From NCBI GenBank assembly GCA_041648915.1, contig JBAZOC010000003.1, positions 1-56,564 on the forward strand: a DNA stretch of 56,564 bases, given 5' to 3'. A model generated the notes under the pieces. It ran no database searches. It saw only the letters and a program-made list of their open reading frames with translations, and was not told where the DNA came from. Below, in pieces: positions 2,267 through 56,558 of the stretch (position 1 is the stretch's first letter; every line of letters begins with the position of its first letter). The translations under genes and the position numbers were made by a program. This DNA is from Candidatus Omnitrophota bacterium (lineage in GTDB: Bacteria > Omnitrophota > Gorgyraeia > Gygaellales > Profunditerraquicolaceae).

Positions 2267-2782
2267 CTATATTGCTAAATCGCTATTAACCGAATCCTGG
2301 CCACCTTCTAAAGATACAATTTTCCAAGCGCCGCCTTCTTTAATAAAAAAATAACGTAACTTTCGTAAGGTCTTAACCTGTCGAGCTCCCTCCAAGTTGA
2401 ATGCCGAAATATTATAGCTCGCCAGCATAGTCGCTTTATTATCCGTTATATTGTATTCAAGTATATTTAAGTTACTGAATGACCTATTTACTACGTTTTT
2501 AAATAAATTTTCATAATAAAGTTTTGTCCAGTCATAATCCCGAAATTTATTTTGGACTATTCCTGAAAATTCTTTTGAGGTGTAACCCATTACGCAATCT
2601 AAATCGCCTTGAGCAATACACTCCAGATAACTTTCCAATACTTTTTTAATTTCTGAGAAATCTTTCTCCTCTGTTTTCGAACTCAACGAAACTGATCCTG
2701 TTTCTTCAGCTGGCACGAGCACAACCCTATACCCTAGTTGCACTATCAAGATAAGTGCTAAAAGCAAAGGCCATTTTTTCAT
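2267..2782 (-). CDS. Secreted small protein, possibly NTF2/SnoaL-like fold
   Basis: N-terminal signal-peptide-like MKKWPLLLALILIVQL. The LECIAQGDLDCVMGY segment resembles NTF2-like domain starts. I chose the second ATG (2782) because AAGGAGG sits 6 nt upstream of it. Confidence 0.45.
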   Translation of the reverse strand: MKKWPLLLALILIVQLGYRVVLVPAEETGSVSLSSKTEEKDFSEIKKVLESYLECIAQGDLDCVMGYTSKEFSGIVQNKFRDYDWTKLYYENLFKNVVNRSFSNLNILEYNITDNKATMLASYNISAFNLEGARQVKTLRKLRYFFIKEGGAWKIVSLEGGQDSVNSDLAI

Positions 2783-2832
2783 TTTCATCCTCCTTTGTTT
2801 TAAATCCCTTGAATCTACCCCGATAATTGCGC

Positions 2833-4200
2833 CTATCCTTCCTGCTTCTGCAAATTTCCTGCCTCCTGCGAGAAATATTCGTTGATCTGCCCGTAAATCT
2901 TTCTTAATTTATCGCCGGATACCTTACAGAAACTAAAAGGATTTTCGGTGAAATGGGCTGTTTCCAATTCCTTAATCTGCGCGGTAAATGCAGGTTGATT
3001 TCTTAAATCATTATAGAGGGCCGAACCCGGGAGAGGAGAAAACAGGCTCCAGGTATATTTATCAAGTCTTAATTTTTTAGCCAAGTCAAAAGTCATCTCA
3101 ATGTCTTCTAGTGCCTCTCCCGGTATGCCAATCATAAAAAAACCCGCTACTTTCGCATGCCGCTTAACCATTTGGACTATCCCCTGGATTTTATCAACAT
3201 CTATTCCTTTAGCTAAGGTTTTCAGGCTTTTAGGCGAACCGGATTCTATCCCTAGATCCAGCTGCACAAGCCCAGCCTCCTTTTCTATAATAAGTTCCTC
3301 CTCATCTACCAGGTCAACCCGGGTATTATACTGCCAGGAGATCTTTAAGCCCCTCTTCTTAATTTCAGAACAAAAAGCAAAAACCCATTTCTTATCCAGG
3401 TTAAAAATGCTATCCTTAAACCAGATCCCTTCCAATGAATATTTTTCCTTTAAATATTCCATCTCGCTAACTACTCTTTCCGGGCTTTTTACCCTGAATC
3501 TTCTGCCCATAGTCTGATGGACAGCGCAAAAAGAACAAAAGTAAGGGCAGCCCCGCGATACAAGCATTGAAATTCCGCGTAACCCCCTTAAATTTTTATT
3601 ATATTGAACATATCTTTCTACGGGGAAAGAAGCATAATCCGCAAGAGGTAAAGAATTTAGGTCCTCAATCAAGGGCGCCATATTCCGGGTCTTTACGCTG
3701 CCATTTTTATAACAAAGCCCGGGGATATCTTTTAGCTTATCCTTGAGCCTTCCTGACAATACCGCCTCCAGGGGCATCTCTCCTTCGCCGCGCACGATAA
3801 AATCAATATTTTTATCTTCTAGGCAACCTTCCGGGTTCACCGTAGGATGAACGCCGCCTAGAATAACCTTTGCTGTTGGAAGAACCTGCTTGGTTAGCCT
3901 TGCTATACGTTGGACCGAAGGCAAGGTTGGAGTCATTGTAGTAATGCCTACAATTGAAGGCCGTTTTTCAAGCAACAATTTCTCCATCTCTTTTTCTTCC
4001 ATCATAAGGCCAACCATATCTATTAGTTTAACATCAAACTTCTTTTCCCTAAGATAGGCGCAAAGAGAACCCAACCCTAACGGAGGCTCAAAGGGATGAA
4101 TATACATATTGCCCCCTTTAATCCAATGCCCATATTCCTTACTGCGGCTGGACATTTCATCAGGAGTAAAATAAGGCGGATTTACCAGTAAGATATCCAT
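2833..4200 (-). CDS. B12-binding-domain radical SAM enzyme (class B type)
   Basis: 455 aa. N-terminal MDILLVNPP Rossmann-like domain with GGVHPT. The cluster motif SRGCPYFCSFCAV is CX3CX2C. Confidence 0.85.
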   Translation of the reverse strand: MDILLVNPPYFTPDEMSSRSKEYGHWIKGGNMYIHPFEPPLGLGSLCAYLREKKFDVKLIDMVGLMMEEKEMEKLLLEKRPSIVGITTMTPTLPSVQRIARLTKQVLPTAKVILGGVHPTVNPEGCLEDKNIDFIVRGEGEMPLEAVLSGRLKDKLKDIPGLCYKNGSVKTRNMAPLIEDLNSLPLADYASFPVERYVQYNKNLRGLRGISMLVSRGCPYFCSFCAVHQTMGRRFRVKSPERVVSEMEYLKEKYSLEGIWFKDSIFNLDKKWVFAFCSEIKKRGLKISWQYNTRVDLVDEEELIIEKEAGLVQLDLGIESGSPKSLKTLAKGIDVDKIQGIVQMVKRHAKVAGFFMIGIPGEALEDIEMTFDLAKKLRLDKYTWSLFSPLPGSALYNDLRNQPAFTAQIKELETAHFTENPFSFCKVSGDKLRKIYGQINEYFSQEAGNLQKQEG

Positions 4201-4204
4201 AGTT

Positions 4205-4888
4205 CTAACTGCTCTCGGGTTTTTTTGCTAAAATTAACCAAAAAAGATTTTTGTGCTCAGGGTAGCGCGCCGTATATTCCGTATGTTGAAGCTCCAGCTC
4301 TTCCATTCCCAATATCTCAAAACCGGCAAAATGTCCGGCTACTTCGTCTTGAGTAAAAAAGTGATAAATAATACCGCTGAGCCCATCGCAATCCAGACAG
4401 AAGGTATTGGGTTCTATTTCTTTACCTTTGTGCTTCCCTAGATGAAATAATGTATTATTGGTTGAACGGATACTGGCATAAATAATCCCTCCCGGCCGTA
4501 AAATTCTTTTTACTTCAGAGAATGATTTTTTAACTTCATTGATTTTCCCAAGATAGAGGGCCCGCCAGGCAAGAACCGCATCAAAGAAATTATCGGAATA
4601 CCCCGTCTTGCGCATATCGCCTAACCTAACCTCTGCCGATAACCCTTCTTTTCCCAAGGTATCTTTGGTGGTTTTAACGGCGGCAGGAGATATATCCAGC
4701 GCAAAAGCCTTAAAATCTTCCCTGGCCAAAAGAAGCGTGTGCCGGCCCTGCCCACAACCTAAATCCAGGACCTTATTTAAGCCGGATTTTTTGAATAAAC
4801 TCAATTTGTTAAGGACATGGCTATCCGGATCGACTAACCCGTAAGTTTTTGTAGCAATCATCCTATCCCAGCCGGTTCGAGAATTCAT
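4205..4888 (-). CDS. Class I SAM-dependent methyltransferase
   Basis: Motif I VLDLGCGQGRHT; post-I LDIS; GGIIY. The start is set at the ATG at 4888, which forms an ATGA overlap with the stop of the upstream gene. The longer ORF reaching 4942 would overlap that gene by 58 nt. Confidence 0.85.
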   Translation of the reverse strand: MNSRTGWDRMIATKTYGLVDPDSHVLNKLSLFKKSGLNKVLDLGCGQGRHTLLLAREDFKAFALDISPAAVKTTKDTLGKEGLSAEVRLGDMRKTGYSDNFFDAVLAWRALYLGKINEVKKSFSEVKRILRPGGIIYASIRSTNNTLFHLGKHKGKEIEPNTFCLDCDGLSGIIYHFFTQDEVAGHFAGFEILGMEELELQHTEYTARYPEHKNLFWLILAKKPESS

Positions 4889-6039
4889 AAATCCTTTTCC
4901 AGGGCTTCTTTTAAGGCGCAACAACAACCGCAACGGACACAACCCGCTTTATGTTCAAGGGGATTCAACGAATACATAATCATCAGGTTTTTTAGCTCTT
5001 TATATATTTTAACCAGGCTCTTGAGGCCAGGCGGAGGCAGCTGCTCCAGCGGAGAACCCATTAATGGCCGGAAAGCGGTAACGTGAGGAATACCGCCGTT
5101 CTCGCAAATTGCTTTACATCCGGCAATTGTGCCTTCCGGAGGCTCAAGCCCGGCAATAAGCCAGGAACTAACCTGATTCCTGCCAAAAACATCTACCGCT
5201 TGTTTTATCGCCTCTAAATATACTCCCACTGAATAAAGCTTTGCTTTTTTCGGCATAAGCTCTTTTCTTATTTTTTCCTCATATATTTCCATATTGAAAC
5301 TTATCGTATCCAATCCTGCCATCTTTAACTCTTTTACCCTAGGCCGGCTGATCGGGCAAATCTGGATAGAAATAGGTATGGCGCTGACTCTTCTGATAGC
5401 TTGGATCGCCTGAAGATACAGGTTAAACGTTGCTTCTTCGGAAAGCGACCCAGAGTTTATGTTTACTTCCCGAAATGATAAATATTCTTTTTCCCCATGC
5501 ATAGACCTATAAGCAGAAAGTTCGTTTTCACCCATTATCCTTTTTAATGCCCTGCTCATCTCTTCGGGTTTTTTGGTGACAAACTCGCCTCCTGTTTCTA
5601 AGGCACAAAATTTACATCCGCCCGCGCCCTGTTTATAGCTGCAAACATTAGAAAGAGTAGTAGCAATAACATCATTTCCGTGATGCTGGAAGATACTCCG
5701 GATTCCGGGATCAAAATGCCAGGAGGGTACCCCCGTGGGCGTAGCTTTAATAATGGGCTTATCTTTCTTCTTAATCCATCCTTGGCCATTGAAAACAGTA
5801 AATACATAGGGAGAATCTCTTACGAAAGGTTCGCGGACCGCTAAATTAACCGGATATACCTTGCCTTCTTGCTCAAGGGAAAAACATCTTCCTTCAGATA
5901 AAGAAGCTCTTTTCATCCCGTGCCCGGAATATCCCGGGGCAGGAATAATGCTTTTTTTTATGGCAGGGTCCAGGCCCTCGTCTAACCTTAGGCCGTGACA
6001 GAATAAATCCAGCTTTAACTCTAGCAGGTTAATGCCCAT
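4885..6039 (-). CDS. Radical-SAM-like TIM-barrel enzyme with non-canonical Cys spacing
   Basis: 384 aa. The only N-terminal Cys triad is NVCSYKQGAGGCKFCALETGG (C-X8-C-X2-C). The downstream region is biotin-synthase-like (NINSGSL..., GLDTISFNMEIY). The C-terminus is Cys-rich: CVRCGCCC. Confidence 0.6.
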   Translation of the reverse strand: MGINLLELKLDLFCHGLRLDEGLDPAIKKSIIPAPGYSGHGMKRASLSEGRCFSLEQEGKVYPVNLAVREPFVRDSPYVFTVFNGQGWIKKKDKPIIKATPTGVPSWHFDPGIRSIFQHHGNDVIATTLSNVCSYKQGAGGCKFCALETGGEFVTKKPEEMSRALKRIMGENELSAYRSMHGEKEYLSFREVNINSGSLSEEATFNLYLQAIQAIRRVSAIPISIQICPISRPRVKELKMAGLDTISFNMEIYEEKIRKELMPKKAKLYSVGVYLEAIKQAVDVFGRNQVSSWLIAGLEPPEGTIAGCKAICENGGIPHVTAFRPLMGSPLEQLPPPGLKSLVKIYKELKNLMIMYSLNPLEHKAGCVRCGCCCALKEALEKDL

Positions 6040-6045: not shown

Positions 6046-6666
6046 TTATCCAATCCATAGACCTTCCAGCCGTGCCTGTAAACCGGCAGGGGTACGGTTA
6101 AGATAATTGACCAGGCCGCTGTGCCTCCATTGCAGCATGCACCTGCGCGGCTGAAAAAAATAACGTATTCCTATTTTAACTTCGCAACGGCTATCCTGGA
6201 TTAATCCTTCATAGGCCAACGCAACATAATATCCTAAATCCTTAAAACTTTTTTGCCGCGGAGTAAGCGGGCCGGTAACGCACCAGGCCATCACGCCGGT
6301 TTTTTTATCAACATCCATAATTATGCCGGAATGCGTCACCGGGCAACCGCAAGATACTCCTAATGGCCGGCCGATGATTATTTCTCCTGCCTTAAGGTCC
6401 ATTTCGCGGGTAAGCGTCGGATTATGCGGAATAATGATTTCCCGCGGGCCGGGTTCCTCGGGAAAATGATCCAGGACAAAATCGAATTCTCTCCCTAAGG
6501 AATCTTTCCAGGCCGCCGGGTTATTCCCAGCGGTTTCCTGCTTTATTTTTTCTCCGCTGGCTTGGGCATAAATACAATTTTTGATTAAAGCGGGGTTTTC
6601 TTTTAACTGCTCATAGAACTCAGCGCAGGTACGAAATCCACACCCTCCGCAATCTTGCATCTTCAT
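6046..6666 (-). CDS. Fe-S cluster domain protein (RnfB / corrinoid Fe-S protein N-terminal-type CX2CX4C domain)
   Basis: 206 aa. N-terminal MQDCGGCGFRTCAEF; later GVSCGCPVTH. An ATGA overlap with the upstream GTPase gene lies at 6663..6666. Confidence 0.55.
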   Translation of the reverse strand: MKMQDCGGCGFRTCAEFYEQLKENPALIKNCIYAQASGEKIKQETAGNNPAAWKDSLGREFDFVLDHFPEEPGPREIIIPHNPTLTREMDLKAGEIIIGRPLGVSCGCPVTHSGIIMDVDKKTGVMAWCVTGPLTPRQKSFKDLGYYVALAYEGLIQDSRCEVKIGIRYFFQPRRCMLQWRHSGLVNYLNRTPAGLQARLEGLWIG

Positions 6667-7364
6667 TCGCCCCTGTAGAAAAGCTGGTTATCCAAAGTCC
6701 TCACTACCCCAAAGTGCTGCTTCCAGCCGATTTCTTTTTTACCCACACAAACAGTGCAGGTCCCCACAGGAGGGTTCCCCCGCAGGTAAAGGGGGAATTT
6801 TACATCACGGGAATTATAAATCATTTTTACTATCGGCTCAACCCCTATTCCATGCAGCGCATCGGATTCAATAATCCGCATCCCCGGGCAGGCCTCCAGT
6901 ATCCTTGCCCGGAAGACTTCTCTTTCGGCTTGAGAAATTAAATCAATTTTAGTAACTACCGTAATATCCGCCAGCGAGAGCATCGGCCCGATCTTTCTCG
7001 GCAAGTTCATTCCGCTGGTGGCCTCAAGCACTACCATGCCAAACGCTCCCTCAACATAAGGAGAACACCTAAGGCACAACCCTGCCGTTTCCACCACCAG
7101 CGTTGTCGCTTTTTCCTTGCCTGCCCATTCCACCGCATCGCCTAATACCATCACGTTACAATGATCCGGGCAAAGTTCTCCGGAATAAACTTTTTTGACC
7201 GGAATGGAAAATTCCCGTACGAAGAATTCATCCTCGGTGGCGAATTGAACATCGGTTTTAACGAACGCAACGCTCTCCCCTTTATCCTTAAGCCTCTTTA
7301 TAACATGTTTTAAGATAGTAGTTTTACCGGTTGTCGGAGGGCCTGAGCAAATTACTAATTTCAT
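6663..7364 (-). CDS. G3E-family P-loop GTPase (HypB/UreG/CooC/CobW/MeaB-like metallochaperone class)
   Basis: 233 aa. Walker A SGPPTTGKTT; VETAGLCLRC at the position of the HypB ENVGNLVCP segment; G4-like TKID. Extra Cys pairs CPDHC and CTVC. Confidence 0.65.
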   Translation of the reverse strand: MKLVICSGPPTTGKTTILKHVIKRLKDKGESVAFVKTDVQFATEDEFFVREFSIPVKKVYSGELCPDHCNVMVLGDAVEWAGKEKATTLVVETAGLCLRCSPYVEGAFGMVVLEATSGMNLPRKIGPMLSLADITVVTKIDLISQAEREVFRARILEACPGMRIIESDALHGIGVEPIVKMIYNSRDVKFPLYLRGNPPVGTCTVCVGKKEIGWKQHFGVVRTLDNQLFYRGE

Positions 7365-8155
7365 TACGGCTCCTTAAGATGGGATTTAGTAATAACTTCT
7401 CCGCTACGCATATGCGACCTTAAGCGCAATAACAGATCATCAATCTTTTTAACATGCTCGACTACTTCCTTTTCTTCTCCGTTAGTAACAATCACTTTTT
7501 GCATCGAGCCGCTCTTCATAATTATCCGAAAGTCAGAAAGAAGTATAATCCGGGGGTCATGAGTAACAAAAATAAAAATTTTCTTATACTGTTTTAAAAG
7601 CTCCAGGACCTTGGTGCGGTGGATACCGGCATTTTCGATCTCGTCTAAAAGGATTATTGGAGACTCTCCGATTACTACTGCGTCTGCAATCATAAGCGCG
7701 CGCGTCTGGCCACCGGAGAGTTCGGTCATCGCGCTATGCGTATCAATAGGCTCTCCGGTTAACTGGTTTGCAAATATGAGCGTTTCGTTTACGATCGAGT
7801 TTTCTCTGCCGGAACCGCGGATAGAAGCATGTGTGGCTAAAAAATCCTCCACCCGCATATCAGAAAGAAAATTCGTATGCTGGGTAATCAAGGCGATCAG
7901 CCGGTCTGAGGGCATAGGGCAATATTCTTCGGAAGGCACTATGCCATTAAGCATAACCGTACGCTGCGAAGGCGTATTTTTATTCGCCAAGAGCTCGATA
8001 TCTTTTATCAGGGTAGTCTTGCCTGAACCGGTAGCGCCCACAATACTGACTACCTGGCCCATCTTAAATTCTACTTCCCGGACCGGCTCAGGCTGCCTAT
8101 CCTTGCCATAACCGCCAAGAATACCAATACGTTCCAATCTGGCTATCTTCTCCAT
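7364..8155 (-). CDS. ABC-type ATPase with no cognate permease in the window
   Basis: 263 aa. Walker A GATGSGKTT; Q-loop ITQH; signature LSGGQ; Walker B IILLDE; H-loop VTHD. The stop overlaps the next start as TAATG at 7362..7366. Confidence 0.85.
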   Translation of the reverse strand: MEKIARLERIGILGGYGKDRQPEPVREVEFKMGQVVSIVGATGSGKTTLIKDIELLANKNTPSQRTVMLNGIVPSEEYCPMPSDRLIALITQHTNFLSDMRVEDFLATHASIRGSGRENSIVNETLIFANQLTGEPIDTHSAMTELSGGQTRALMIADAVVIGESPIILLDEIENAGIHRTKVLELLKQYKKIFIFVTHDPRIILLSDFRIIMKSGSMQKVIVTNGEEKEVVEHVKKIDDLLLRLRSHMRSGEVITKSHLKEP

Positions 8156-18657: not shown

Positions 18658-18667
18658 CGCTTTTTCC

Positions 18668-22131: not shown

Positions 22132-22596
22132 TCATATAAATTGCTTCTTTACTTTTGGCCGGGTAAAATAATATATTAGGCAGAGAGTAAAACCGATATC
22201 CATAAGAGAACAGATTATAGCGCTAAACCAAGACAGCATATCAATTTTGGGCAGCACATCAATGGGAAGTACGCCTTGATTGATCTTCCATAGCAGGACT
22301 CTTTTGAAACAAATAACCGGGTGCTTCCAATAAACGGTAGCAATGGTAAAAAAACTAATGCCCAGGATGGCTTTCCGAAAGATATCCCTGCGGAATAAGA
22401 TGCCTATTCCTGAAATGATTAAAACTATTCTTAGGGCTATAGAAAGAATATAGCGGGCCAGGATTATTTTTTCCGAAGAAGGGTAAAATTTTGCGTAATA
22501 GGTATTAAAATTGACGGTGGGCAGGCCGTGTAAGGAATATACAATAATTAAAATACTAAAAATTATTAAGCCTTTGGGTATTTTTCCTCTAATCAT
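22132..22596 (-). CDS. Small integral membrane protein, unknown function
   Basis: 154 aa, 4-5 hydrophobic segments, no recognisable motif. Confidence 0.45.
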   Translation of the reverse strand: MIRGKIPKGLIIFSILIIVYSLHGLPTVNFNTYYAKFYPSSEKIILARYILSIALRIVLIISGIGILFRRDIFRKAILGISFFTIATVYWKHPVICFKRVLLWKINQGVLPIDVLPKIDMLSWFSAIICSLMDIGFTLCLIYYFTRPKVKKQFI

Positions 22597-47481: not shown

Positions 47482-47490
47482 AGCCAACCT

Positions 47491-50693: not shown

Positions 50694-52139
50694 ATGAAAA
50701 TACTTTTATTAAGATTACCCCTGGTCTACGGCGCTTCCTCTATCTCAAGATTATTATCCCCTGGCGGGTATCTTTCCTCCAGGCTATATTGCGAGTGGCT
50801 TGTCCGTTATCCGCCGCTGGGGCTTCTTTATTACGGCTCGATACTTAAAAAGAACGACCACAGCGTTAAGCTTATAGACGGAGAATTAACCGGAATTTCT
50901 TTTAATAAGCTCCTGCTTTTGGCTAAAGAATATAACCCCGATATTATCTTGGCCACGGTCAATATCTATAACCCCAGGGCTGAATTTGATTTTTTATCAA
51001 AGTTAAAAGATAGTCTGGGATGCTTTATAGCCGCCCGCGGCCATTTTCCCCAACTTTATCCCGAAGAAAGCATCTGCAATAAAGGGATCGATTGCGCTCT
51101 AACGGGAAAAGGATTCAATACGATAATAAATTTAGCCAGGGCCGTTGAGCAGCACATCCCCTTGGAAAAAATAAAAGGAATTATTTTCAAAAATAATCAA
51201 GATGAAATAGTAAAGACCGGCCCTGAAGAACCTTATGCTTTTAATAACCTGCCTCATCCCGCCCGGGAATTAATAGATAATGCCGTCTATACAACCGCTT
51301 TAACCAAAAATGATCTCTTTACGACTATAACCACAAGTATAGGCTGCCCTTATTCTTGCACCTACTGCGTCGACAGGCATATTCCCTACCAGACCCGAAG
51401 CATTGACAATATAATTGCCGAGATCAGAGATTGTATTGATAATTTCGGAATAAAAGAGGTCACCTTTCTGGATTCAACTTTTACCGTTGATAAAACCCGG
51501 ACCATACAATTATGCGAAGCAATCATTGAGCAGGGCCTAAAGTTCAAGTGGGCCATCCGTACCCGCCCGGACCGCGTCGATAATGAATTACTATCTTTAC
51601 TGGCAAAAGCCGGATGCGTGAGCATCCATTACGGCATAGAATCCGGCGACCAACAAATACTGGATAACCTAAAAAGAAATAATACTTTAAAAACCATTCA
51701 ACAGGCCATAGAAATGACTTCCCGGAATGGCCTGGAAACGCTCGGTTTTTTCATGATCGGCAATACCGGCGAAACGCCGCAGACAATTAATAACACTATC
51801 CGCTTTGCCCGGTCGTTACCCTTAGACATCGCGCAATTCAACGTCGCTTTTCCTGTGCCGCCGAGTAACATATATATAAATTCGCTAAAAACACTGGGGC
51901 AGGACATCTGGCTTGAGTCATATAAAGGCAAAGAAATAACGGCCGCAATGTGCAAACCACAGGATACCGCTCTAGCGGCGGAAGAATTAACGTATTGGGC
52001 TAAAAAAGCCTATAGAAGCTTTTATTTACGGCCGGGATATTTCCTGCGCCTGGCCAAATATAAATACTTTCCCCATATCCTCTTAAGGCAATTCAAATTA
52101 CTGCTGCTGCATATAAAAATATCTTTCAATCGGATCTGA
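50694..52139 (+). CDS. B12-binding-domain radical SAM enzyme (inverted orientation)
   Basis: 481 aa. MKILLLRLP N-domain; TSIGCPYSCTYCVD. Confidence 0.85.
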   Translation: MKILLLRLPLVYGASSISRLLSPGGYLSSRLYCEWLVRYPPLGLLYYGSILKKNDHSVKLIDGELTGISFNKLLLLAKEYNPDIILATVNIYNPRAEFDFLSKLKDSLGCFIAARGHFPQLYPEESICNKGIDCALTGKGFNTIINLARAVEQHIPLEKIKGIIFKNNQDEIVKTGPEEPYAFNNLPHPARELIDNAVYTTALTKNDLFTTITTSIGCPYSCTYCVDRHIPYQTRSIDNIIAEIRDCIDNFGIKEVTFLDSTFTVDKTRTIQLCEAIIEQGLKFKWAIRTRPDRVDNELLSLLAKAGCVSIHYGIESGDQQILDNLKRNNTLKTIQQAIEMTSRNGLETLGFFMIGNTGETPQTINNTIRFARSLPLDIAQFNVAFPVPPSNIYINSLKTLGQDIWLESYKGKEITAAMCKPQDTALAAEELTYWAKKAYRSFYLRPGYFLRLAKYKYFPHILLRQFKLLLLHIKISFNRI

Positions 52140-52140
52140 C

Positions 52141-53193
52141 CTAAAAGGCTCTTTTTATCAGCTTAACTGCCCCCTGCTTGAAAACACTCCTATTATTCGC
52201 ATTACTAAATAGCTTTATTCTTCTATTTTTATTACCAATATACCAGCGATAACCTTTAACTAAAGCGTCAACATTGCTCCTTTTAGGAAAATACCCTAAG
52301 ACCTTATTTATCTTTGCAATCGAAAAATACAGATCCTTATCGATAACGCCATAAACTCCTTCATAAATAGAGGAAATCTTTGTTTTTTCAAAAATCTTCA
52401 AGATAATCTTAATACCATTTGCGGGAAAATGGATTAACCTGGATTTACTCCCCACTGCTTGGATAAAATTATTTAAATCTTCATTAAGCGTACCAAACAC
52501 CGCAGCGCCAACATTAAAATCAGTATTTACTAAATACGCCGGAGCATTTATTATTGCCTGGATTGCCTCGCATAGGTCCTGGGCTTCTAACATTTGAAAG
52601 CGGTTTTGGCCGGATCCAATAATCGGGATCTTTCTATTTTCCTTAATCCAATCGTAAAAAATCTGAAAAAAACCTAATTTTCCTTCTCCGATAATAGGAG
52701 CTGGCCTGAGGATAGTGATATACATACCTTGCTTTCTGCATAATACGCAGGATTGCTCTGCTAGGATTTTACTACGCGCATGGTCAGTAAGACCGCGGAA
52801 AGCTGCCTCTTCTTCTATTGGCATATTTTTATGCAAACCGTATACCGCGGTGGAAGATAAATAAATCAACCGGTTAGTTTTATTTTCTTTAGCCGCTCTG
52901 AGAAGATTTTTTGTACCCTTGACGCCAGTAGAAAATATATCCCGCCTTTTTTTAAACGGAAGCTCGGAAGCGGCATGGATGATAAAATCCGTACCGCAGA
53001 CCGCCTGGAAAAGGGAGGCATAATCTCTTAGATCTCCTTTAAAATATTCTACCGTGCCGGCATAATCGTTTGCTGCATAATCGCAAATATCAAAAATACG
53101 CAGGCGGTACCCTCTTTTCAAAAAATAATTCGCTAGGTAAACCCCTAGGTATCCTGCGCCGCCGGTAATAAGGATATTTTTCGGGTTATTCAT
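52141..53193 (-). CDS. NAD-dependent epimerase/dehydratase-like SDR with an atypical active-site motif
   Basis: ITGGAGYLGVYL Rossmann motif. HARSK occupies the position of YXXXK. The start is set at the ATG at 53193 (AGGAG 6 nt upstream); the ORF-track start at 53208 is TTG. Confidence 0.8.
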   Translation of the reverse strand: MNNPKNILITGGAGYLGVYLANYFLKRGYRLRIFDICDYAANDYAGTVEYFKGDLRDYASLFQAVCGTDFIIHAASELPFKKRRDIFSTGVKGTKNLLRAAKENKTNRLIYLSSTAVYGLHKNMPIEEEAAFRGLTDHARSKILAEQSCVLCRKQGMYITILRPAPIIGEGKLGFFQIFYDWIKENRKIPIIGSGQNRFQMLEAQDLCEAIQAIINAPAYLVNTDFNVGAAVFGTLNEDLNNFIQAVGSKSRLIHFPANGIKIILKIFEKTKISSIYEGVYGVIDKDLYFSIAKINKVLGYFPKRSNVDALVKGYRWYIGNKNRRIKLFSNANNRSVFKQGAVKLIKRAF

Positions 53194-54205
53194 TTTCTGC
53201 TCCTGCAAAATGAACTACTTTGCCGGCTAGCTCCTTACAATACCTGCATTCGTCGCATAGCCCGAGGCATTTTCCTTCCAGAAAATGCCCCATAAAACCG
53301 TCTAAATCAGAATTATTGATAAAGACGCCCGGGCTTTTTCCGCCTTCAGGAAGTGGCGCGCAGCGGGGAAAATCAGGAAATAATTTTATCAGATTCCCCG
53401 CGTAGCATCTTTTGCTATACGCATTAATAATCTCGACCGAATCCTCGCCAGGCCAACCATTGCCAATTAACTCTAACCTATTAATACCGATTCCTTCATA
53501 ATACTTAATATCTTCCGGCCGGATCCATTGAGAAGAAATAATATCAAGCCCTGTCCTGGAGTACTCTTTTAGGCATTGAAGGCCATAAAAAATATCATCA
53601 TTATTCGCCGCAAATTGCCCGGGTAGATGCGCTCTAAGATTTGCATGAAAACCGTGATTAACGCAGTTATTCAGGCAACAGTGGTTTGCCACCAGCTGTA
53701 AGCCACATTTTACGTTACTCCGGACCCCATGCAATAAAGCGAAATTACGGTTTACCTTGTAAGAGGCTAAGGTAATTATATCGGCCCCTAAGTCTTCCCA
53801 GCGCTTTGCGCGCTGAATATTATCCACTTCGGCATTTGACGATATCTCAACAGCTACTTTAGGGTATTGTTTTTTCATTAACTCCACAAAATACGGCATA
53901 CTAACCGATACCGCATCCACCCCCCCAGCTACTAAATTATCCAGAAACACCCTGATCCGCCTTTGACCGCTCCTTGTCCACTCCAGGTTATTCAGACAGG
54001 TAACATCCATTAAAAAGGTGAAACTGATACCGCGATTATGCGCTGCGTTGACATACCCATTAATACTATCCTTAACTTCAGTACTTTCCAAAAAATTACC
54101 GGGTATTTTAGCGTATATATTGCCGATATTATCGTCTGGCAGGAAGCGCCCGGAGTCAAAATACCGGTCAACAGGAACAGATAATTTAATCTTATTGCTA
54201 TCCAT
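53186..54205 (-). CDS. U32-family protein (shorter paralog)
   Basis: 339 aa. GVDAVSVSMPYFVELMKKQYPKVAVEISSNAEV...LQLVANHCCLNNC. C-terminal C-X3-C-X2-C-X2-C (CLGLCDECRYC). Confidence 0.65.
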   Translation of the reverse strand: MDSNKIKLSVPVDRYFDSGRFLPDDNIGNIYAKIPGNFLESTEVKDSINGYVNAAHNRGISFTFLMDVTCLNNLEWTRSGQRRIRVFLDNLVAGGVDAVSVSMPYFVELMKKQYPKVAVEISSNAEVDNIQRAKRWEDLGADIITLASYKVNRNFALLHGVRSNVKCGLQLVANHCCLNNCVNHGFHANLRAHLPGQFAANNDDIFYGLQCLKEYSRTGLDIISSQWIRPEDIKYYEGIGINRLELIGNGWPGEDSVEIINAYSKRCYAGNLIKLFPDFPRCAPLPEGGKSPGVFINNSDLDGFMGHFLEGKCLGLCDECRYCKELAGKVVHFAGAENE

Positions 54206-54222
54206 GCTAGGACTCTTACCCC

Positions 54223-55401
54223 TTAAAAATAATCAAACAACCGCCCGCTTATTAAATTCTCCAGGAAAATCTTGCTGTTTTTTATCCTTTTATCCAGATA
54301 CTTATGGTCTATAGTCATGACCCGAGCGGCGATCTTATGGCAATAAGTGCATTGCTGGCCGCACATAAAATTGCATTTTTCTTCCCAAAAATAATCCAGG
54401 AAGCCGTCCAGGCCCCGATTATCAATATATATCCCTTCCTCCTTAAAGACATTGCGCGCCTGCAGCAGGATAAACAGGTTAATATGCTCGGGCCGCAGGA
54501 AGTATTTAAAAATAGGCTTTATTTTCTTATAGTTAAAAAATCTTTTTTTGGTATTCGGCAGTAAATCCAGTAAATTTCCATCATAGTGCTTTTTCTTATA
54601 GGCGTTAAATATTAGGTGGATCTTTTCCGAATCCATCTCCCTTCCGACTAATTTAAGCCAATGGATGCCTGTTTCTTCATAGTAATGCACGTCTTCAGGC
54701 CTAATCCAAAGGCTCTTGATTAATTCTACCGGATCGTTTAAACGTATATGATTGCACTTGAGCGTATAGTAGTCGATTAAATAGCCTTTAAGTATGTGCT
54801 GCGATTGAGAGCTATGCGCATTCAAATTACTATGGCAATGGTAAGCAGGGCATCCCAGCAGGCATTTTAAATTAGCAATCAATTGTAAATCGCATTTTAT
54901 CCTGCCCTGAATTTTCCTAAGCAGCTTAAAATCCCTGTTAGCATCCAGCACAGAAAGAGTTATTTTATCAACGCCGATTTCATCCCATCGTCTTATCTGG
55001 AATGCATTGTTGATATTATCCTGGACCGAAACGTAAATATGCAGCCCCGGAGCGCGCTCCCTTATCAGGCGGTAAAGGTAGGCAGAAGAAATTGTAACAG
55101 AGTCAACCTCCGCCGAAACAAGCCAATCCAACATCTTTAAAATATTATTTTTTTGTGATTGCAGGTATTGTATGTCACCCAGGCATGTGCCATTGAGAAG
55201 GTAATTGAATTTGAGCCCTTTTTGATGCGCACTAAGGATATGGCGCTCGGCCCTCTTTAAGGAAACTTGGGGCAGGATTGCCGATGCGCGGCCGCCGCCG
55301 ATTATATCATTGTTCAATTTTCCGTATAATTCCGAACCCTGGCAGCCAATTAATCCGTCAATTAAATTATCCTGCCAGTTCGTCGGTATCGAATATCTCA
55401 T
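54223..55401 (-). CDS. U32-family protein
   Basis: 392 aa. N-terminal MRYSIPTNWQDNL parallels MEFSVPTNWQEEL of 29458..30642. EVDSVTISSAYLYRLIRERAPGLHIYVSVQ; LQLIANLKCLLGC. C-terminal CNFMCGQQCTYC. Confidence 0.7.
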   Translation of the reverse strand: MRYSIPTNWQDNLIDGLIGCQGSELYGKLNNDIIGGGRASAILPQVSLKRAERHILSAHQKGLKFNYLLNGTCLGDIQYLQSQKNNILKMLDWLVSAEVDSVTISSAYLYRLIRERAPGLHIYVSVQDNINNAFQIRRWDEIGVDKITLSVLDANRDFKLLRKIQGRIKCDLQLIANLKCLLGCPAYHCHSNLNAHSSQSQHILKGYLIDYYTLKCNHIRLNDPVELIKSLWIRPEDVHYYEETGIHWLKLVGREMDSEKIHLIFNAYKKKHYDGNLLDLLPNTKKRFFNYKKIKPIFKYFLRPEHINLFILLQARNVFKEEGIYIDNRGLDGFLDYFWEEKCNFMCGQQCTYCHKIAARVMTIDHKYLDKRIKNSKIFLENLISGRLFDYF

Positions 55402-56558
55402 ATTTTATATAACTTAGGCATCCTATTTATAATCCGTATAGTCTTATCGCAATCAAAACCAACTGTCCGGGCGTACCATTCTAAAGTTGCAATCCGCGGC
55501 TTATTCTCATTCTCTGTAATCTTAAGGGCCTGCTCCCGCGAAAGCAGGCCTTCCCTGACCTGGCAGCTGCGGAAAGTATCATTTTCAGTGAAACCGGCAA
55601 CCGCCATATAGATATAATTGTAGAATGCCGAGGTCCCGTCATCAATTCTCCAGGTAAGGCAGGTATCGGTCGGGACTTCCCAGGCATACTCCTCGATTAG
55701 CGTTTTAGTTATTGCCTGTTCATCCCATTTTATAAAATGATACAGGAAGATATCGTAATAATCCCGCTTAAGAAAAAACAGAGAAAGATACCCCAGGAAG
55801 GTATCGATTAATGCGCTATGGATAAATCCCGGATTCTGCACAAACCGTTGCGCATAGTATAGCCCTAATTTAACCTTATTACGCAGCGAGATATCGCAAT
55901 ATATCATCGGGGACTCTAAAGTAACGTTGCTAAAACCTGTTTTAAAAAGGCTGTCCTCAAAGGTGTTACCTAAACCATGAAACATCAATTTAATATGCGC
56001 CTGCCTCTTTACTCTCCGGGCATAATAGATAGCCTGTTTATCCCCTGACATAAATATCGGAACCAACCCCAGCTCCGGGCTTTTTAACCAGGCCTCCACG
56101 TTCCTTCTTATGTTCCGGCGCTTTTTATTAACGTCGGCCTTAATGACGATCCGGTCTATCCCCAGCGCGCTGCACATCTTAACCTGGTTCCTGCGCGCTA
56201 TATCCGTAGCCATACCCCAATCATAAGTATAGGCAAGGGGATTTAAATGCAATACTCTCTTCACATAATGTAAAGCAAACGAACTATCCCTGCCTCCGCT
56301 TAATGCTACGATACAATTATTCTTGGCGTTACTGTTGCGAAATGGCGCAATAATTTTTTCTAACTCTTTTTCGCCTTTGACGCTGGCCTTTAAATATCTT
56401 TTACAATAATTACAGACGCCCCTTGCGTCATAAGCGATATAGGGCGTGGTCTCCGGGAGCAGACAGCTGCTACAGCGCCTTATTCCGTTTTTAGCATAGA
56501 GATTTTTCCAGGTCTCCAGCATTACCTCCCTAGTATCATCTTTTAACTTATAGGACAT
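55398..56558 (-). CDS. N-acetyl sugar amidotransferase (PP-loop ATP pyrophosphatase; WbpG/PseA/LfnA-like)
   Basis: 386 aa. N-terminal Cys knuckles CSSC...CNYC, then the PP-loop ALSGGRDSS. ATGA overlap with the next gene at 55398..55401. Confidence 0.8.
   Translation of the reverse strand: MSYKLKDDTREVMLETWKNLYAKNGIRRCSSCLLPETTPYIAYDARGVCNYCKRYLKASVKGEKELEKIIAPFRNSNAKNNCIVALSGGRDSSFALHYVKRVLHLNPLAYTYDWGMATDIARRNQVKMCSALGIDRIVIKADVNKKRRNIRRNVEAWLKSPELGLVPIFMSGDKQAIYYARRVKRQAHIKLMFHGLGNTFEDSLFKTGFSNVTLESPMIYCDISLRNKVKLGLYYAQRFVQNPGFIHSALIDTFLGYLSLFFLKRDYYDIFLYHFIKWDEQAITKTLIEEYAWEVPTDTCLTWRIDDGTSAFYNYIYMAVAGFTENDTFRSCQVREGLLSREQALKITENENKPRIATLEWYARTVGFDCDKTIRIINRMPKLYKI

Follow-up and report, generated by a model that had tools for sequence, protein, structure and literature searches.

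The window, a stretch of 56,564 nucleotides on one contig of the uncultured phylum Omnitrophota, carries 21 radical-SAM loci among GT-C, GT2 and sugar-modifying genes, as detected by profile HMMs. It most likely represents a modular cell-envelope glycosylation island making unusual surface sugars without oxygen. The island joins at least three modules, which are found alone or otherwise combined in other Omnitrophota contigs. Literature searches found no description matching the cluster. As the sequence-only reading had claimed, the arrangement is without a characterised counterpart; it recurs in pieces across the Omnitrophota. The host is assigned to this phylum by homology, because of a tadA gene adjoining tRNA-Arg(ACG), the closest genome contig (Candidatus Omnitrophota MAG STB_105, 90%) and the named homologues of a U32 protein and a 715-aa GT-C.

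Pfam scans covered 48 ORFs of the window, and NCBIfam models were also scored. The tight, near-unidirectional packing was borne out: 43 of 45 genes are read from the minus strand, all but 50694 and 15387, and coding sequence fills about 98% of the span. The median intergenic gap is 9 nt; 35 of the 46 gaps do not exceed 35 nt, and there are 12 overlaps. Two genes are split by 1–2-nt deletions within A/T-rich runs. Radical-SAM genes, a few percent at most of anaerobe genomes, account for about 45% of the window genes, which excludes clustering by chance. Identity between the paralogues is 22-41%, with one pair at 54% (44682 and 49192). The paralogues are therefore old, and a recent tandem amplification is ruled out.

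The earlier count of 21 radical-SAM loci holds. PF04055 scores above its gathering score in 20, and the last (4885), already described as non-canonical, is recognized by NF045502. The cysteine motif is CX3CX2C in 18 loci and CX4CX2C in two (44682, 49192). Ten loci had been read as B12-binding. BchE, HpnJ, AprD4 and similar models cover most of the length of all ten proteins, and PF02310 is above cutoff in seven (2833, 11620, 30603, 44682, 46060, 47491, 49192), below it in 8223 and 37023 and undetected by Pfam in 50694.

50694..52139, plus strand: B12-type radical-SAM-like protein (AprD4/BchE/PhpK-like) without detectable B12 domain (PF04055 82.2 bits; AprD4 134.9 and BchE 153 bits, both under cutoffs)
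49192..50550, minus strand: B12-binding radical SAM, CX4CX2C (PF02310 53, PF04055 73.2 bits), with a 58% orthologue in related locus L008
47491..49023, minus strand: B12-binding radical SAM (PF02310 65.5, PF04055 39.6 bits)
46060..47487, minus strand: B12-binding radical SAM (PF02310 81.9, PF04055 65.4 bits)
44682..46049, minus strand: B12-binding radical SAM, CX4CX2C, paralogue of 49192 (PF02310 53.6, PF04055 82.2 bits)
37023..38405, minus strand: HpnJ/AprD4-like radical SAM with degenerate B12 domain (PF04055 75.1, PF02310 20.1 bits; HpnJ 187.6 bits, cutoff 577)
30603..32120, minus strand: B12-binding radical SAM (PF02310 90.6, PF04055 74.6 bits; BchE 245 bits, cutoff 481)
11620..13077, minus strand: B12-binding radical SAM, module A (PF02310 44.2, PF04055 55 bits)
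8223..9551, minus strand: B12-type radical-SAM-like protein, module A (PF04055 68.9, PF02310 27.1 bits)
2833..4200, minus strand: B12-binding radical SAM, last radical SAM of module A (PF02310 85.7, PF04055 80.1 bits)

HpnJ is the best or second-best family for each of the ten, and AprD4 is among the matches of each. The substrate of HpnJ is a lipid-linked sugar. The remaining eleven loci are more diverse.

43630..44661, minus strand: radical SAM/SPASM (PF04055 41.8, PF13186 31.7 bits)
35950..37017, minus strand: radical SAM/SPASM, auxiliary-cluster domain most BtrN-like (PF13186 48.1 bits)
27737..28747, minus strand: radical SAM/SPASM (PF04055 50.4, PF13186 31.8 bits)
20515..22065, minus strand: HemN/ChuW-like (class C-like) radical SAM with C-terminal TM segment (PF04055 55.9 bits)
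17563..18696, minus strand: radical SAM, module A (PF04055 64.6 bits), orthologues of about 70% in related module A loci
16437..17561, minus strand: radical SAM/SPASM, lineage-specific insertion in module A (PF04055 74.2, PF13186 26.7 bits), missing at the equivalent position in L010-L015
15387..16433, plus strand: radical SAM, lineage-specific insertion on the opposite strand, absent in relatives (PF04055 43.7 bits)
13092..14459, minus strand: radical SAM with Zn-ribbon, module A (PF23545 46.5, PF04055 80.7 bits)
10621..11618, minus strand: radical SAM/SPASM, 332 aa without the 1-nt deletion near 11250 that splits the gene in this window
9630..10634, minus strand: radical SAM, module A (PF04055 37.6 bits)
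4885..6039, minus strand: variant radical SAM, CX8CX2C (NF045502 'variant_rSAM' 140 bits, cutoff 125; PF04055 25.9 bits, cutoff 29.5)

Within the proposed SPASM/twitch-like set, Pfam detects SPASM in 16437, 27737, 35950 and 43630 and weakly in 10621 (24 bits); for 9630, 13092, 15387 and 17563 the assignment was not demonstrated. The HemN-like character of 20515 is supported (hemN 152.6, ChuW 149.6 bits), both scores being under cutoffs. The Zn-ribbon protein 13092 is a distant relative of Tes (194 bits, cutoff 450), TrsS (189 bits) and HMPTM. The radical-SAM proteins have enzymes that act on sugars among their solved relatives: 35950 matches BtrN (3.6e-13 against PDB), DesII and BlsE, and 30603 matches AprD4.

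U32 and sugar-nucleotide enzymes accompany these proteins. HMM support was obtained for all such genes named before: three U32 proteins, a DegT aminotransferase, two SDRs and a WbuX-like amidotransferase, as well as for the three GT2 enzymes and the methyltransferase listed below.

55398..56558, minus strand: WbuX-like N-acetyl-sugar amidotransferase (PP-loop), first gene in the window (TIGR03573 124 bits, cutoff 203)
54223..55401, minus strand: U32 protein, first of an adjacent pair, conserved Cys sets in alignment A1 (PF01136 41.6 bits)
53186..54205, minus strand: U32 protein, second of the pair, 34% identity to 54223 (PF01136 29.5 bits)
52141..53208, minus strand: SDR, epimerase / 3-beta-HSD type reductase (PF01370 118.8, HpnA-like 88.8 bits)
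39517..40494, minus strand: SDR, NDP-sugar 4,6-dehydratase/epimerase type (PF01370 157.6 bits; dTDP-glucose 4,6-dehydratase 118 bits, under cutoff)
38415..39545, minus strand: DegT-family NDP-4-keto-sugar aminotransferase (PF01041 384.8 bits; PseC 302 and ArnB 280 bits, both under cutoffs)
29458..30642, minus strand: U32 protein, TIM barrel, conserved Cys sets (PF01136)

The model of 29458 (pLDDT 89) has the U32 protein Mk0906 as best PDB match, and every named one of its 429 homologues is from Omnitrophica/Omnitrophota. Its start is overlapped by the 3' end of 30603 by 40 nt, a conserved pairing. SDR 52141 lies tail-to-tail with 50694, and this pairing is kept in L041 and L051. In L041, B12-type radical-SAM, U32 and radical-SAM/SPASM genes lie upstream of a 92% orthologue of amidotransferase 55398; judged from this locus, the cluster extends past the right end of the window (upstream side).

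All six GT-C genes proposed earlier were recovered, five via PMT_2 and 33784 via its homologues and a GT-C-like model.

41208..42791, minus strand: GT-C (PMT_2/ArnT-like), about 11 TM segments (PF13231 42.3 bits)
33784..35931, minus strand: 715-aa GT-C with C-terminal all-helical repeat domain (own PMT_2 score 19.6 bits)
32139..33762, minus strand: PMT_2 GT-C, 541 aa without the 2-nt deletion at 33257-33260 that splits the gene in this window
25720..27735, minus strand: GT-C (PMT_2), 671 aa (PF13231 54.2 bits)
23695..25719, minus strand: GT-C (PMT_2), 674 aa, about 10 TM segments, 27% identity to 25720 (PF13231 23.6 bits, under gathering score)
18668..20338, minus strand: GT-C (PMT_2), first gene of module A (PF13231 34 bits)
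40491..41198, minus strand: soluble GT2, candidate ArnC-like polyprenyl-phosphate sugar synthase (PF00535 93 bits; best match ArnC 133 bits, cutoff 529)
28713..29423, minus strand: soluble GT2, polyprenyl/dolichyl-phosphate hexose synthase-like (PF00535 75.7 bits; dolichyl-phosphate hexose transferase 118, AglJ 114, PpgS 64.5 bits, all under cutoffs)
22711..23664, minus strand: membrane-associated GT2 with TM segments (PF00535 71.6 bits)

Homologues of 33784 are annotated PMT_2/GT39 (PF13231), and its model matches AglB, ArnT and STT3 in Foldseek at E ~0.02. Judged from one named homologue (Candidatus Omnitrophica), this protein appears to be an Omnitrophota-restricted marker.

The window also holds genes outside the earlier gene list, i.e. 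42835, 22132, 14478 and the trio at 6046-8155.

42835..43515, minus strand: membrane-anchored TPR protein (TPR families; N-terminal TM)
22132..22596, minus strand: conserved 4-TM protein, flippase candidate by position only
14478..15281, minus strand: divergent UbiA-superfamily-like membrane protein, module A (PF01040 33.7 bits, cutoff 34.2)
7364..8155, minus strand: stand-alone ABC-type ATPase without permease, 80-81% conserved in relatives (PF00005 58.8 bits)
6663..7364, minus strand: CobW/HypB-type metallochaperone GTPase (PF02492 53, HypB 51.9 bits)
6046..6666, minus strand: small protein with N-terminal Fe-S domain (PF04060 27.8 bits)
4205..4942, minus strand: class I SAM-dependent methyltransferase (PF13649 71 bits)
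2267..2788, minus strand: membrane-anchored NTF2/SnoaL-like protein, uncertain cluster member (weak SnoaL_3 match, E = 0.0017; N-terminal TM)

The TPR protein accompanies GT-C genes in several lineages and adjoins PMT_2 in L002, L004 and L006. All 36 homologues of 22132 are hypothetical proteins, Omnitrophica/Omnitrophota being the only organism named; it matches neither GtrA, SMR, MATE or any other Pfam model nor a PDB entry. The UbiA-like protein falls just below the Pfam cutoff and retains the acidic motifs of UbiA only in part, which was counted against the glycan reading.

Module A extends from GT-C 18668 through the B12-type radical SAM 2833 (window 2.8-20.3 kb). It is collinear in at least five independent contigs at 45-86% identity. 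Orthologues of 18668 (60-62%) open the module in L010-L015, and in L013 and L014 it is free-standing, directly after tadA. Its best-conserved stretch comprises the ABC ATPase, HypB/CobW GTPase, Fe-S protein, variant radical SAM and methyltransferase. L002 and L017 are collinear with module B (~24-45 kb) at 59-94%, L004 and L006 with part of it. The pairing of U32 with a B12-type radical SAM, usually with a GT-C, occurs in dozens of Omnitrophota species. A genome scan yielded 44 loci with 153 B12-type radical-SAM, 73 U32 and 37 GT-C genes. Related clusters contain accessory families without a match in the window: polysaccharide deacetylase with DUF3473, NodU-type carbamoyltransferase, GNAT, SGNH, DUF2079, more PMT_2 and GLF-like flavoenzymes. 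By family assignment, these accessory genes belong to carbohydrate tailoring; the deacetylase, carbamoyltransferase, SGNH and GNAT genes are recurrent. Compared with STB_105, the membrane- or periplasm-facing parts diverge most (TPR 44%, three GT-Cs 58-62%), while the cytoplasmic enzymes share 81-94%. A variable slot holds an arylsulfotransferase in one lineage and GT2 plus SPASM genes in others. Divergent outward-facing parts and a variable slot are patterns typical of surface-glycan loci.

The observation made in the sequence-only reading is thus confirmed and its interpretation partly supported: the radical-SAM loci are genuine, the cluster matches no known one, and its neighbourhood is conserved in related genomes, in modules. 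A one-off locus is rejected, the same theme being found across the Omnitrophota. A single 54-kb pathway was not upheld; the modules are separable elsewhere, and a single product is therefore unlikely. The sugar setting stands against a cluster for RiPPs or cofactors. The analysis found neither a precursor peptide nor a nitrogenase-like gene nor a lipid-synthesis core, and the gaps of the window contain no plausible precursor ORF. The absence of Wzx/Wzy/WaaL, phosphoglycosyltransferase, permease and regulator domains from the window, as stated before, was upheld by Pfam for the 48 ORFs. The lack of an initiating phosphoglycosyltransferase, of Wzx/Wzy and of a ligase speaks against the glycan model. 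SPASM and B12-type radical-SAM enzymes act on peptide or lipid substrates as often as on sugars, which counts against a glycan product. So does the best-conserved stretch of module A, from the ABC ATPase to the methyltransferase, for which the glycan model offers no explanation. A 'heavily C-methylated, oxidised or cross-linked' product is unproven; no radical-SAM protein attains any equivalog cutoff. Several look closer to non-methylating relatives (AprD4-, HpnJ- or BtrN-like) than to methylases.

For the glycosylation island, the balance tilts slightly towards several systems leading from polyprenyl-phosphate sugars to GT-C enzymes, with radical-SAM and U32 enzymes tailoring the sugars independently of oxygen. 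The polyprenyl-linked route suggested before fits the best matches of the short GT2s (ArnC, dolichyl-phosphate hexose transferase, PpgS). No radical-SAM, U32 or GT2 protein reached an equivalog cutoff of the curated models, and every reaction type is therefore given by analogy; substrates, step order and acceptor are likewise proposals. At the outset, both SDRs, together with the aminotransferase (DegT) and the amidotransferase (WbuX-like), would convert nucleotide sugars. Short GT2s, perhaps with the UbiA-like protein, would load the sugars onto polyprenyl phosphate. Oxygen-independent tailoring may follow at the cytoplasmic membrane face, on nucleotide sugars or lipid-linked sugars. The B12-type proteins may catalyze C-methylation, dehydration/deoxygenation or ring rearrangement, in analogy to GenK, AprD4 and HpnJ. 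SPASM/twitch proteins may perform a BtrN-like C-OH oxidation feeding transamination, and U32 proteins an anaerobic hydroxylation in the manner of UbiU/UbiV/TrhP. Lipid-linked sugars would then be flipped across the membrane; no flippase was identified in the window, which weighs against the model. Finally, the six GT-C enzymes would pass the sugars to a putative periplasmic or surface acceptor, for which the window holds neither a ligase nor a clue.

The proposed parallel systems would glycosylate outside the cytoplasm, like the Gtr, Arn and polyprenyl-phosphoribose/GT136 systems. SDR 39517, DegT 38415, GT2 40491 and PMT_2 41208 together mirror the logic of ArnA/B/C/T.

The cluster (2267-56558) comprises 45 genes, each of two frameshift-split genes being counted once, and 43 of the 45 are located on the minus strand (ORF listing; Pfam scans of 48 ORFs). 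Packing is dense, with a median intergenic gap of 9 nt, 35 of 46 gaps not exceeding 35 nt, 12 overlapping junctions and about 98% coding sequence. Besides the radical-SAM (rSAM) genes, Pfam scans identified three GT2 glycosyltransferases, one DegT aminotransferase, two SDRs and one WbuX-like amidotransferase. The cluster also encodes three U32 proteins, a methyltransferase, a UbiA-like membrane protein, a membrane-anchored TPR protein, a stand-alone ABC ATPase, a HypB/CobW GTPase, a small Fe-S protein, a conserved 4-TM protein and an NTF2-like protein. Six GT-C glycosyltransferases are present. Five were recognized via PMT_2; the sixth is the 715-aa protein 33784 (genes are named by their left coordinate), assigned by the annotation of its homologues and by its model, in which a GT-C membrane domain precedes an all-helical repeat domain. 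Nearly every item of the inventory in the sequence-only reading was borne out by these scans, as were the absences it had listed. None of the 48 ORFs encodes a Wzx, Wzy, WaaL, phosphoglycosyltransferase, permease or regulator in the Pfam scans, and the window gaps hold no plausible precursor-like small ORF. The gene order is as follows.

Modules and local features of the window (forward-strand positions)
139-2155: downstream flank with a FlaI/TadA-type secretion ATPase (815-2155), tRNA-Arg(ACG), tadA (239-700) and tRNA-Ser(GCT)
2.8-20.3 kb: module A, in the order GT-C, rSAM, UbiA-like, Tes-like rSAM, B12-rSAM, rSAM/SPASM, rSAM, B12-rSAM, ABC ATPase, HypB/CobW, Fe-S, variant rSAM, methyltransferase, B12-rSAM
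4205-8155: cassette of an ABC ATPase (no permease), a HypB/CobW GTPase, a PF04060 Fe-S protein, a CX8CX2C rSAM and a SAM methyltransferase
10621-11214 and 11247-11618: one 332-aa rSAM/SPASM gene, split by a 1-nt deletion at ~11250
15387-17561: gene 15387 (plus strand) and the SPASM rSAM 16437
~24-45 kb: module B, in the order TPR, GT-C, GT2, SDR, DegT, B12-like rSAM, SPASM rSAM, 715-aa GT-C, GT-C, B12-rSAM, U32, GT2, SPASM rSAM, GT-C, GT-C
32139-33254 and 33244-33762: one 541-aa PMT_2 GT-C, split by a 2-nt deletion at 33257-33260
35849-35948: slot of variable content, immediately upstream of the 715-aa GT-C and empty in the window
~44.7-56.5 kb: module C, with the WbuX-like gene, a U32 pair, an SDR and five B12-type rSAMs
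44682-46049 and 49192-50550: B12-rSAM paralogues, 54% identical, with CX4CX2C replacing CX3CX2C

The density of rSAM genes is far above chance. Paralogues share only 22-41% (B12-rSAMs), 33-38% (U32 proteins) or at most 40% identity (GT-Cs). Recent tandem amplification was ruled out by the 22-41% identity; the paralogues are old, and the density therefore does not stem from recent amplification. The two largest gaps, of 176 and 168 nt, contain only low-complexity, unconserved ORFs, and no precursor peptide was seen in the related loci examined. Two small ORFs called in L008, a related locus from another contig, were unconvincing as precursors, being mutually unrelated and on the opposite strand. 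Pfam detected neither a peptidase besides the U32 family nor a permease among the window ORFs, hence no leader peptidase or dedicated exporter, and no membrane partner of the ABC ATPase 7364. When 1-20 kb was scanned for promoters and terminators, the counts stayed at shuffle background (60 vs 51.6 ± 7.1; 22 vs 19 ± 4.5) and were uninformative on operon structure.

Both split genes are intact elsewhere. At 33257-33260 the window reads TTT, whereas the near-identical ENA metagenome contig ERZ27247363:k141_2502065 reads TTTTT; the 541-aa PMT_2 GT-C is unbroken in that contig and in L002/L003. At ~11250 the window reads ACTAA-AAAAAA vs ACTAATAAAAAA in Logan SRR8542065_300484 and JGI Ga0378408_0107141, and the 332-aa rSAM/SPASM gene is unbroken in both and in all module A relatives. 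Errors of sequencing or assembly, or else pseudogenes at strain level, probably account for these frameshifts of 1-2 nt in A/T-rich runs.

Modules A, B and C were defined by comparing fetched loci against the window proteins. This comparison of gene neighbourhoods, suggested by the sequence-only reading, revealed modules A and B to be collinear in related contigs. A tadA gene adjoining tRNA-Arg(ACG) marks the source as a bacterium. The closest genome is the Candidatus Omnitrophota MAG STB_105 (JAQTPA010000005.1, 58.7 kb; U32 90%, DNA 76-90% identical). Module A is collinear in at least five independent metagenome contigs at 45-86% identity. It directly follows tadA in L013 and L014 and is therefore free-standing there. 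Genes 15387 and 16437 are insertions between the module A rSAM and UbiA-like genes in the window lineage only, absent from that position in five related contigs. Within module A, conservation is highest in the 4205-8155 cassette (73-86% identity, vs 45-70% in the genes around it). No glycan role is obvious for this cassette, which may, speculatively, handle metals or corrinoids on behalf of the rSAM enzymes. Module B is collinear in STB_105 and JGI Ga0265297 (59-94%), and in part also in L004 and L006. Its variable slot is occupied by an arylsulfotransferase (PF14269) in STB_105 and Ga0265297 (L002 8521-9987), and by a GT2 and a SPASM rSAM in L004 (7927-9998) and L006 (7926-9985). In L008, L026, L027, L036 and others, module C orthologues are grouped about U32 pairs, and the tail-to-tail pairing of rSAM 50694 with SDR 52141 is kept in L041 and L051. 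In STB_105, the region upstream of the WbuX orthologue (L041 1-2716) contains a B12-rSAM, a U32 and an rSAM/SPASM gene; the cluster thus extends beyond the right end of the window (56558-56564). Its upstream boundary is reached in neither the window contig nor the STB_105 contig.

Divergence between the window and the STB_105 lineage (L002/L017) is uneven over window positions 23695-27735 and 41208-43515. The TPR protein is 44% and three GT-Cs are 58-62% identical, vs 81-94% for their cytoplasmic neighbours. Divergence of the periplasm-facing parts, as read from these identities, suggests cassette exchange or diversifying selection, as for surface-glycan loci. A few kb from the related cluster of L004/L005 lies a Tad pilus locus (RcpC, secretin, CpaE/CpaF-like), and a link to pilus glycosylation is possible.

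Omnitrophota are uncultured bacteria of wide distribution, ultra-small in size and presumably host-dependent. A U32-profile scan with one genome per species yielded more than 587 relatives, of which 78 loci were kept. At least three core genes occur in 44 of the 78, and these loci jointly contain 153 B12-rSAM, 73 U32 and 37 GT-C genes. All named U32 homologues, as well as those of the 715-aa GT-C (n=1) and the 4-TM protein (n=2), belong to Omnitrophica/Omnitrophota. U32 relatives in other phyla (35-38% identity) are mostly stand-alone. The arrangement is modular, conserved and characteristic of Omnitrophota. Related Omnitrophota clusters carry genes without a match in the window, namely polysaccharide deacetylase plus DUF3473, NodU-type carbamoyltransferase, GNAT, SGNH, DUF2079, further PMT_2 proteins and GLF-like flavoenzymes; these are carbohydrate-tailoring families. 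Modules of the Omnitrophota type with U32, B12-rSAM and GT-C genes were also found under the labels 'uncultured Planctomycetales/Planctomycetia' (L019, L023, L025, L029, L033, L037) and 'Candidatus Paceibacterota' (L048, L050). L025 holds module A at 47-70% identity. Coarse or erroneous taxonomic assignment, or mis-binning, may underlie these labels instead of real spread. Two Elusimicrobia loci, L028 (MGUG01000027.1) and L034 (JAQTZB010000003.1), contain a 41% identical U32 homologue and no GT-C. About ten radical-SAM-like ORFs (7-8 in greedy gene calls) were detected there, one of them for an 851-aa B12-rSAM-like protein.

The 21 rSAM loci counted in the sequence-only reading were recovered in full. 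PF04055 exceeded its gathering score in 20, and the remaining one, 4885-6039 (25.9 vs 29.5), passed NF045502 variant_rSAM (140 vs 125). All possess the three-Cys motif, as CX3CX2C in 18 loci, CX4CX2C in 44682 and 49192, and CX8CX2C in 4885. Orthologues of the CX4CX2C pair (57-58%) flank the U32 pair in L008/L027, which makes the motif a mark of a conserved subfamily and not a defect. Ten proteins had been credited with an N-terminal B12-binding domain. For the greater part of their length all ten align to models of B12-rSAM families, while PF02310 is above cutoff in only seven, sub-threshold in 8223 (27.1) and 37023 (20.1), and undetected in 50694. In class B rSAM enzymes, AprD4-like members do not use cobalamin. 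The nine proteins described as SPASM/twitch-like or related were upheld in part: SPASM is demonstrable in four genes and, weakly, in the C-terminal fragment 10621, and was not demonstrated in the rest.

None of the 21 proteins reached the curated equivalog cutoff of a named rSAM family in NCBIfam (BchE, HpnJ, HpnR, Tes, TrsS, HemN, ChuW, AprD4, PqqE, NirJ etc.). The best ratios of score to cutoff were 245/481 (BchE), 188/577 (HpnJ), 194/450 (Tes) and 153/325 (hemN), and the names BchE, HpnJ, Tes and HemN are therefore not assignable. HpnJ and AprD4 are among the family matches of all ten B12-type proteins, and BchE is the top-scoring family for seven. In PDB searches the solved relatives of 35950 included the sugar-acting BtrN, DesII and BlsE, and those of 30603 included AprD4 (1.8e-17); the match of 35950 to BtrN covers the auxiliary-cluster domain only (E = 3.6e-13). 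The variant rSAM 4885 and the Fe-S protein 6046 gave chance-level PDB sequence matches only. One TM segment each is predicted in 20515 and 13092.

The three U32 genes were recognized by PF01136. The U32 model (pLDDT 89) had as best Foldseek match in the PDB 5d88, the U32 protein Mk0906 (E = 3.3e-11, TMt 0.73), while a PDB sequence search with U32 54223 gave no match. In the family alignment C77, C184, C188 and C220 are invariant, and a second, C-terminal set comprises C347, C352, C355 and C358. UbiU/UbiV are Fe-S-dependent anaerobic hydroxylases, of a class in which four conserved Cys ligate a 4Fe-4S cluster and prephenate serves as oxygen donor, and the alignment pattern would fit enzymes of this type. 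U32 29458 is translationally coupled to B12-rSAM 30603, one of three conserved pairings in line with two-enzyme steps already known.

A carbohydrate context is evident from the sugar genes and glycosyltransferases. SDR 39517 belongs to the 4,6-dehydratase type, and DegT 38415 matches PseC (302 bits) and ArnB (280 bits). GT2 40491, with ArnC as best match (133 bits, below cutoff), adjoins the PMT_2 GT-C 41208. GT2 28713 is nearest to dolichyl- and polyprenyl-phosphate hexose synthases, its best match being a dolichyl-phosphate hexose transferase, below cutoff. The best matches of SDR 52141 are HpnA and OleD-like reductases. The UbiA-like protein 14478 scored 33.7 vs a cutoff of 34.2, and its acidic motifs are degenerate. 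PDB sequence searches with 41208 and 14478 gave no match. No flippase domain (GtrA, SMR, MATE) was found by Pfam in any window ORF. The 4-TM protein 22132, whose homologues are all hypothetical, was tried as a GtrA/SMR/MATE flippase; neither Pfam, with 24 members scanned, nor a PDB profile search yielded a signal. The conserved protein is a flippase candidate from its position alone.

Most likely, the cluster encodes several parallel glycosylation systems with one dedicated GT-C each. The proposal is drawn from the Arn-like cassette, the carbohydrate context, the sugar-acting relatives of the rSAM proteins, the conserved pairings, the traits of the U32 proteins and the uneven divergence. In the proposed route, whose substrates, reaction types and acceptor are predicted, a sugar would be built in the cytoplasm and loaded on polyprenyl phosphate. 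Oxygen-independent editing of the loaded sugar by rSAM and U32 enzymes would follow. The edited sugar would then be flipped across the membrane, and the dedicated GT-C would pass it to an envelope acceptor. By analogy, the cluster has the architecture of extracytoplasmic systems that glycosylate by way of a polyprenyl-phosphate sugar and a GT-C (Kelly et al. 2024, PMC11127046). Misfits are the lack of a recognisable flippase, the borderline UbiA-like protein, the 4205-8155 cassette and the absence of any rSAM at equivalog cutoff. A broader extension is offered tentatively, as possible and somewhat doubtful: phylum-wide, combinatorial, oxygen-independent sugar editing, in which rSAM and U32 enzymes would turn polyprenyl-phosphate sugars into novel residues for surface installation by GT-Cs. 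The U32 hydroxylases would act as pairs, or one-to-one with a B12-rSAM, beside class B and SPASM rSAMs. The products would be C-branched, deoxygenated, hydroxylated or carbocyclic residues new to glycobiology. Some of the GT-Cs would carry helical-repeat domains, the target could be pili or giant surface proteins, and quickly evolving GT-C and TPR parts could provide antigenic or host-range variation.

Modification of a protein or peptide is fairly unlikely as an alternative. Here, rSAM and U32 enzymes would alter a surface protein, e.g. pilins or giant Omnitrophota surface proteins, or a RiPP encoded elsewhere, and the PMT_2 GT-Cs would O-glycosylate it, aided by TPR domains. Protein O-mannosyltransferases are what the PMT_2 family is known for, the GT-C genes have a TPR gene beside them, and SPASM and B12 rSAM enzymes are typically peptide maturases. 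Eukaryotic TMTC enzymes combine GT-C and TPR architecture, which the C-terminal helical-repeat domain of the 715-aa GT-C recalls. Pilin glycosylation by a UbiA-type synthase and a GT-C in Pseudomonas, as cited in PMC11127046, is a further precedent. The Tad/FlaI-type ATPase immediately downstream and the Tad pilus locus near the L004/L005 cluster would agree with a pilin target, but the pilus neighbourhood is unconserved, module A alone following tadA in L013/L014. The lack of a precursor-like ORF in any gap, with only the two unconvincing ORFs of L008, and of a leader peptidase, RiPP recognition element or exporter argues against this reading, and the nucleotide-sugar enzymes and glycan-tailoring accessory genes require no protein substrate. 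Lipid remodelling is unlikely as well. The rSAM and U32 enzymes would then act on lipid tails or polyprenyl/hopanoid-like cores by C-C coupling, cyclisation, methylation or hydroxylation, like Tes, Mss, Hbs, Grs, Hgm and HpnP/R, and glycosyltransferases would add head groups to an unusual glycolipid. Homologues of Mss and Hbs have been reported in some Omnitrophota (bioRxiv 10.1101/2023.10.20.563219; PMC11868695). The rSAM 13092 is a distant Tes/TrsS relative adjoining the UbiA-like membrane protein, and the B12-rSAMs also match TIGR04072 'lipid biosynthesis B12/rSAM', HpnJ and HpnR. The HpnA and OleD-like matches of SDR 52141 and the TM segments of 20515 and 13092 point the same way. The family scores are far under cutoff, however (Tes 194 vs 450, TIGR04072 at most 129 vs 360, HpnJ at most 188 vs 577), and the window lacks glycerolipid, fatty-acid, squalene and isoprenoid-chain genes. 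Six GT-Cs with three or four polyprenyl-phosphate-sugar synthase-like genes exceed the needs of head-group addition, and the accessory genes of related loci are glycan-tailoring families.

Synthesis or modification of a cofactor or tetrapyrrole, as proposed for the Elusimicrobia rSAM loci beside group VI nitrogenase-like genes, is very improbable. The BchE ranking of seven B12-type rSAMs would suit it, as would the HemN/ChuW-like 20515, the CobW/HypB GTPase and the Fe-S protein. So would L028/L034, where the U32 homologue lies amid many radical-SAM-like ORFs, and the Elusimicrobia precedent, in which NifHDK paralogues are accompanied by as many as 13 rSAM genes (Méheust et al., bioRxiv 10.1101/765248). 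Against this, BchE scores are at most half of the cutoff, the window ORFs contain no NifH/D/K-like (Fer4_NifH, Oxidored_nitro), chelatase, uroporphyrinogen or corrin biosynthesis domains by Pfam, and the six GT-Cs, the GT2s, DegT and WbuX are left unexplained. The Elusimicrobia U32 genes have no NifH P-loop motif within a distance of 10 kb. With neither Nif domains in the window nor this motif, a nitrogenase-like link was rejected.

If parallel systems of polyprenyl-linked sugar editing are encoded, the cluster would represent the densest known use of radical-SAM enzymes in envelope glycan synthesis. It would add a new substrate class for the U32 "peptidase" family, now viewed as anaerobic hydroxylases. 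The surface chemistry of Omnitrophota probably shapes their attachment to other cells. Concrete targets for anaerobic expression are the SDR-DegT-GT2-rSAM-rSAM-GT-C set, the U32/B12-rSAM pairs and the rSAM/SDR pair. In genome mining, such loci are mistakable for RiPP, ladderane or cofactor clusters although they stand in a carbohydrate context.

The view of the sequence-only reading that no characterised system matches agrees with full-text literature searches, in which no description of this cluster type was found. The delivery logic of a polyprenyl-phosphate sugar and a GT-C is already known; the massive, conserved and modular recruitment of B12/SPASM rSAM and U32 enzymes is not, and there is a substantial chance that the chemistry itself is new. 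Among known systems, the U32 hydroxylases UbiU/UbiV, TrhP and RlhA share with the window proteins the U32 TIM-barrel fold. The invariant Cys residues in the alignment of the window family would suit Fe-S binding. As in UbiU/UbiV, the window-type proteins are often two adjacent paralogues, and the organism is apparently an anaerobe rich in rSAM enzymes. In contrast, TrhP aligns over ~60-100 residues only (18-30 bits vs a cutoff of 534). The window U32 has an extra C-terminal CX4CX2CX2C, its genes are translationally coupled to B12-rSAM genes, and a UbiT-like carrier and a quinone or RNA context are absent from the window. The Elusimicrobia group VI loci are likewise uncharacterised arrays of many B12- and HemN-type rSAM genes, in a sister phylum, yet they have no GT-C or sugar genes, and the window has no NifH/D/K paralogues.

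Enzyme classes resembling those of the window tailor aminoglycosides and deoxysugars (BtrN, AprD4/AprD3, GenK/GenD1, DesII, BlsE) or lipid-linked sugars (HpnJ, calditol synthase). HpnJ is among the best families of the window B12-rSAMs. The SPASM/twitch rSAM close to the DegT aminotransferase resembles the two-enzyme step of BtrN and BtrS. Similarly, 50694, a B12-like rSAM with no clear cobalamin domain, beside SDR 52141 resembles AprD4 with AprD3. The similarity is remote, and the window encodes no cyclitol synthase or pseudo-oligosaccharide GT set. In the aminoglycoside pathways an antibiotic is released, whereas the window products would go via GT-C to the envelope. The Arn system (ArnA, ArnB, ArnC, ArnD, ArnT, ArnE/F) transfers L-Ara4N to lipid A, and its logic appears to be reproduced by SDR 39517, DegT 38415, GT2 40491 and PMT_2 41208. 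With ArnD there is a precedent for modifying a sugar already attached to undecaprenyl phosphate. Unlike Arn, the window set scores far under the equivalog cutoffs and lacks the formyltransferase/decarboxylase fusion, ArnD and ArnE/F, and its DegT gene is immediately followed by two rSAM genes, one B12-like and one SPASM, in a conserved unit. The three-component systems (GtrA/GtrB/Gtr*; polyprenyl-phosphoribose synthase, MATE and GT136; Kelly et al. 2024, PMC11127046) are comparable in that the window has GT2s 28713 and 40491, candidate polyprenyl-phosphate-sugar synthases, and the UbiA-like protein adjoining GT-Cs. Wzx/Wzy and initiating enzymes are lacking in the window, which is expected of systems decorating an acceptor made elsewhere. 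The window differs from them by the absence of a recognisable GtrA, SMR or MATE flippase, by six GT-Cs instead of one and by PMT_2 in place of GT136. None of the described three-component systems contains interleaved rSAM or U32 genes, whereas the window holds 21 and three, respectively.
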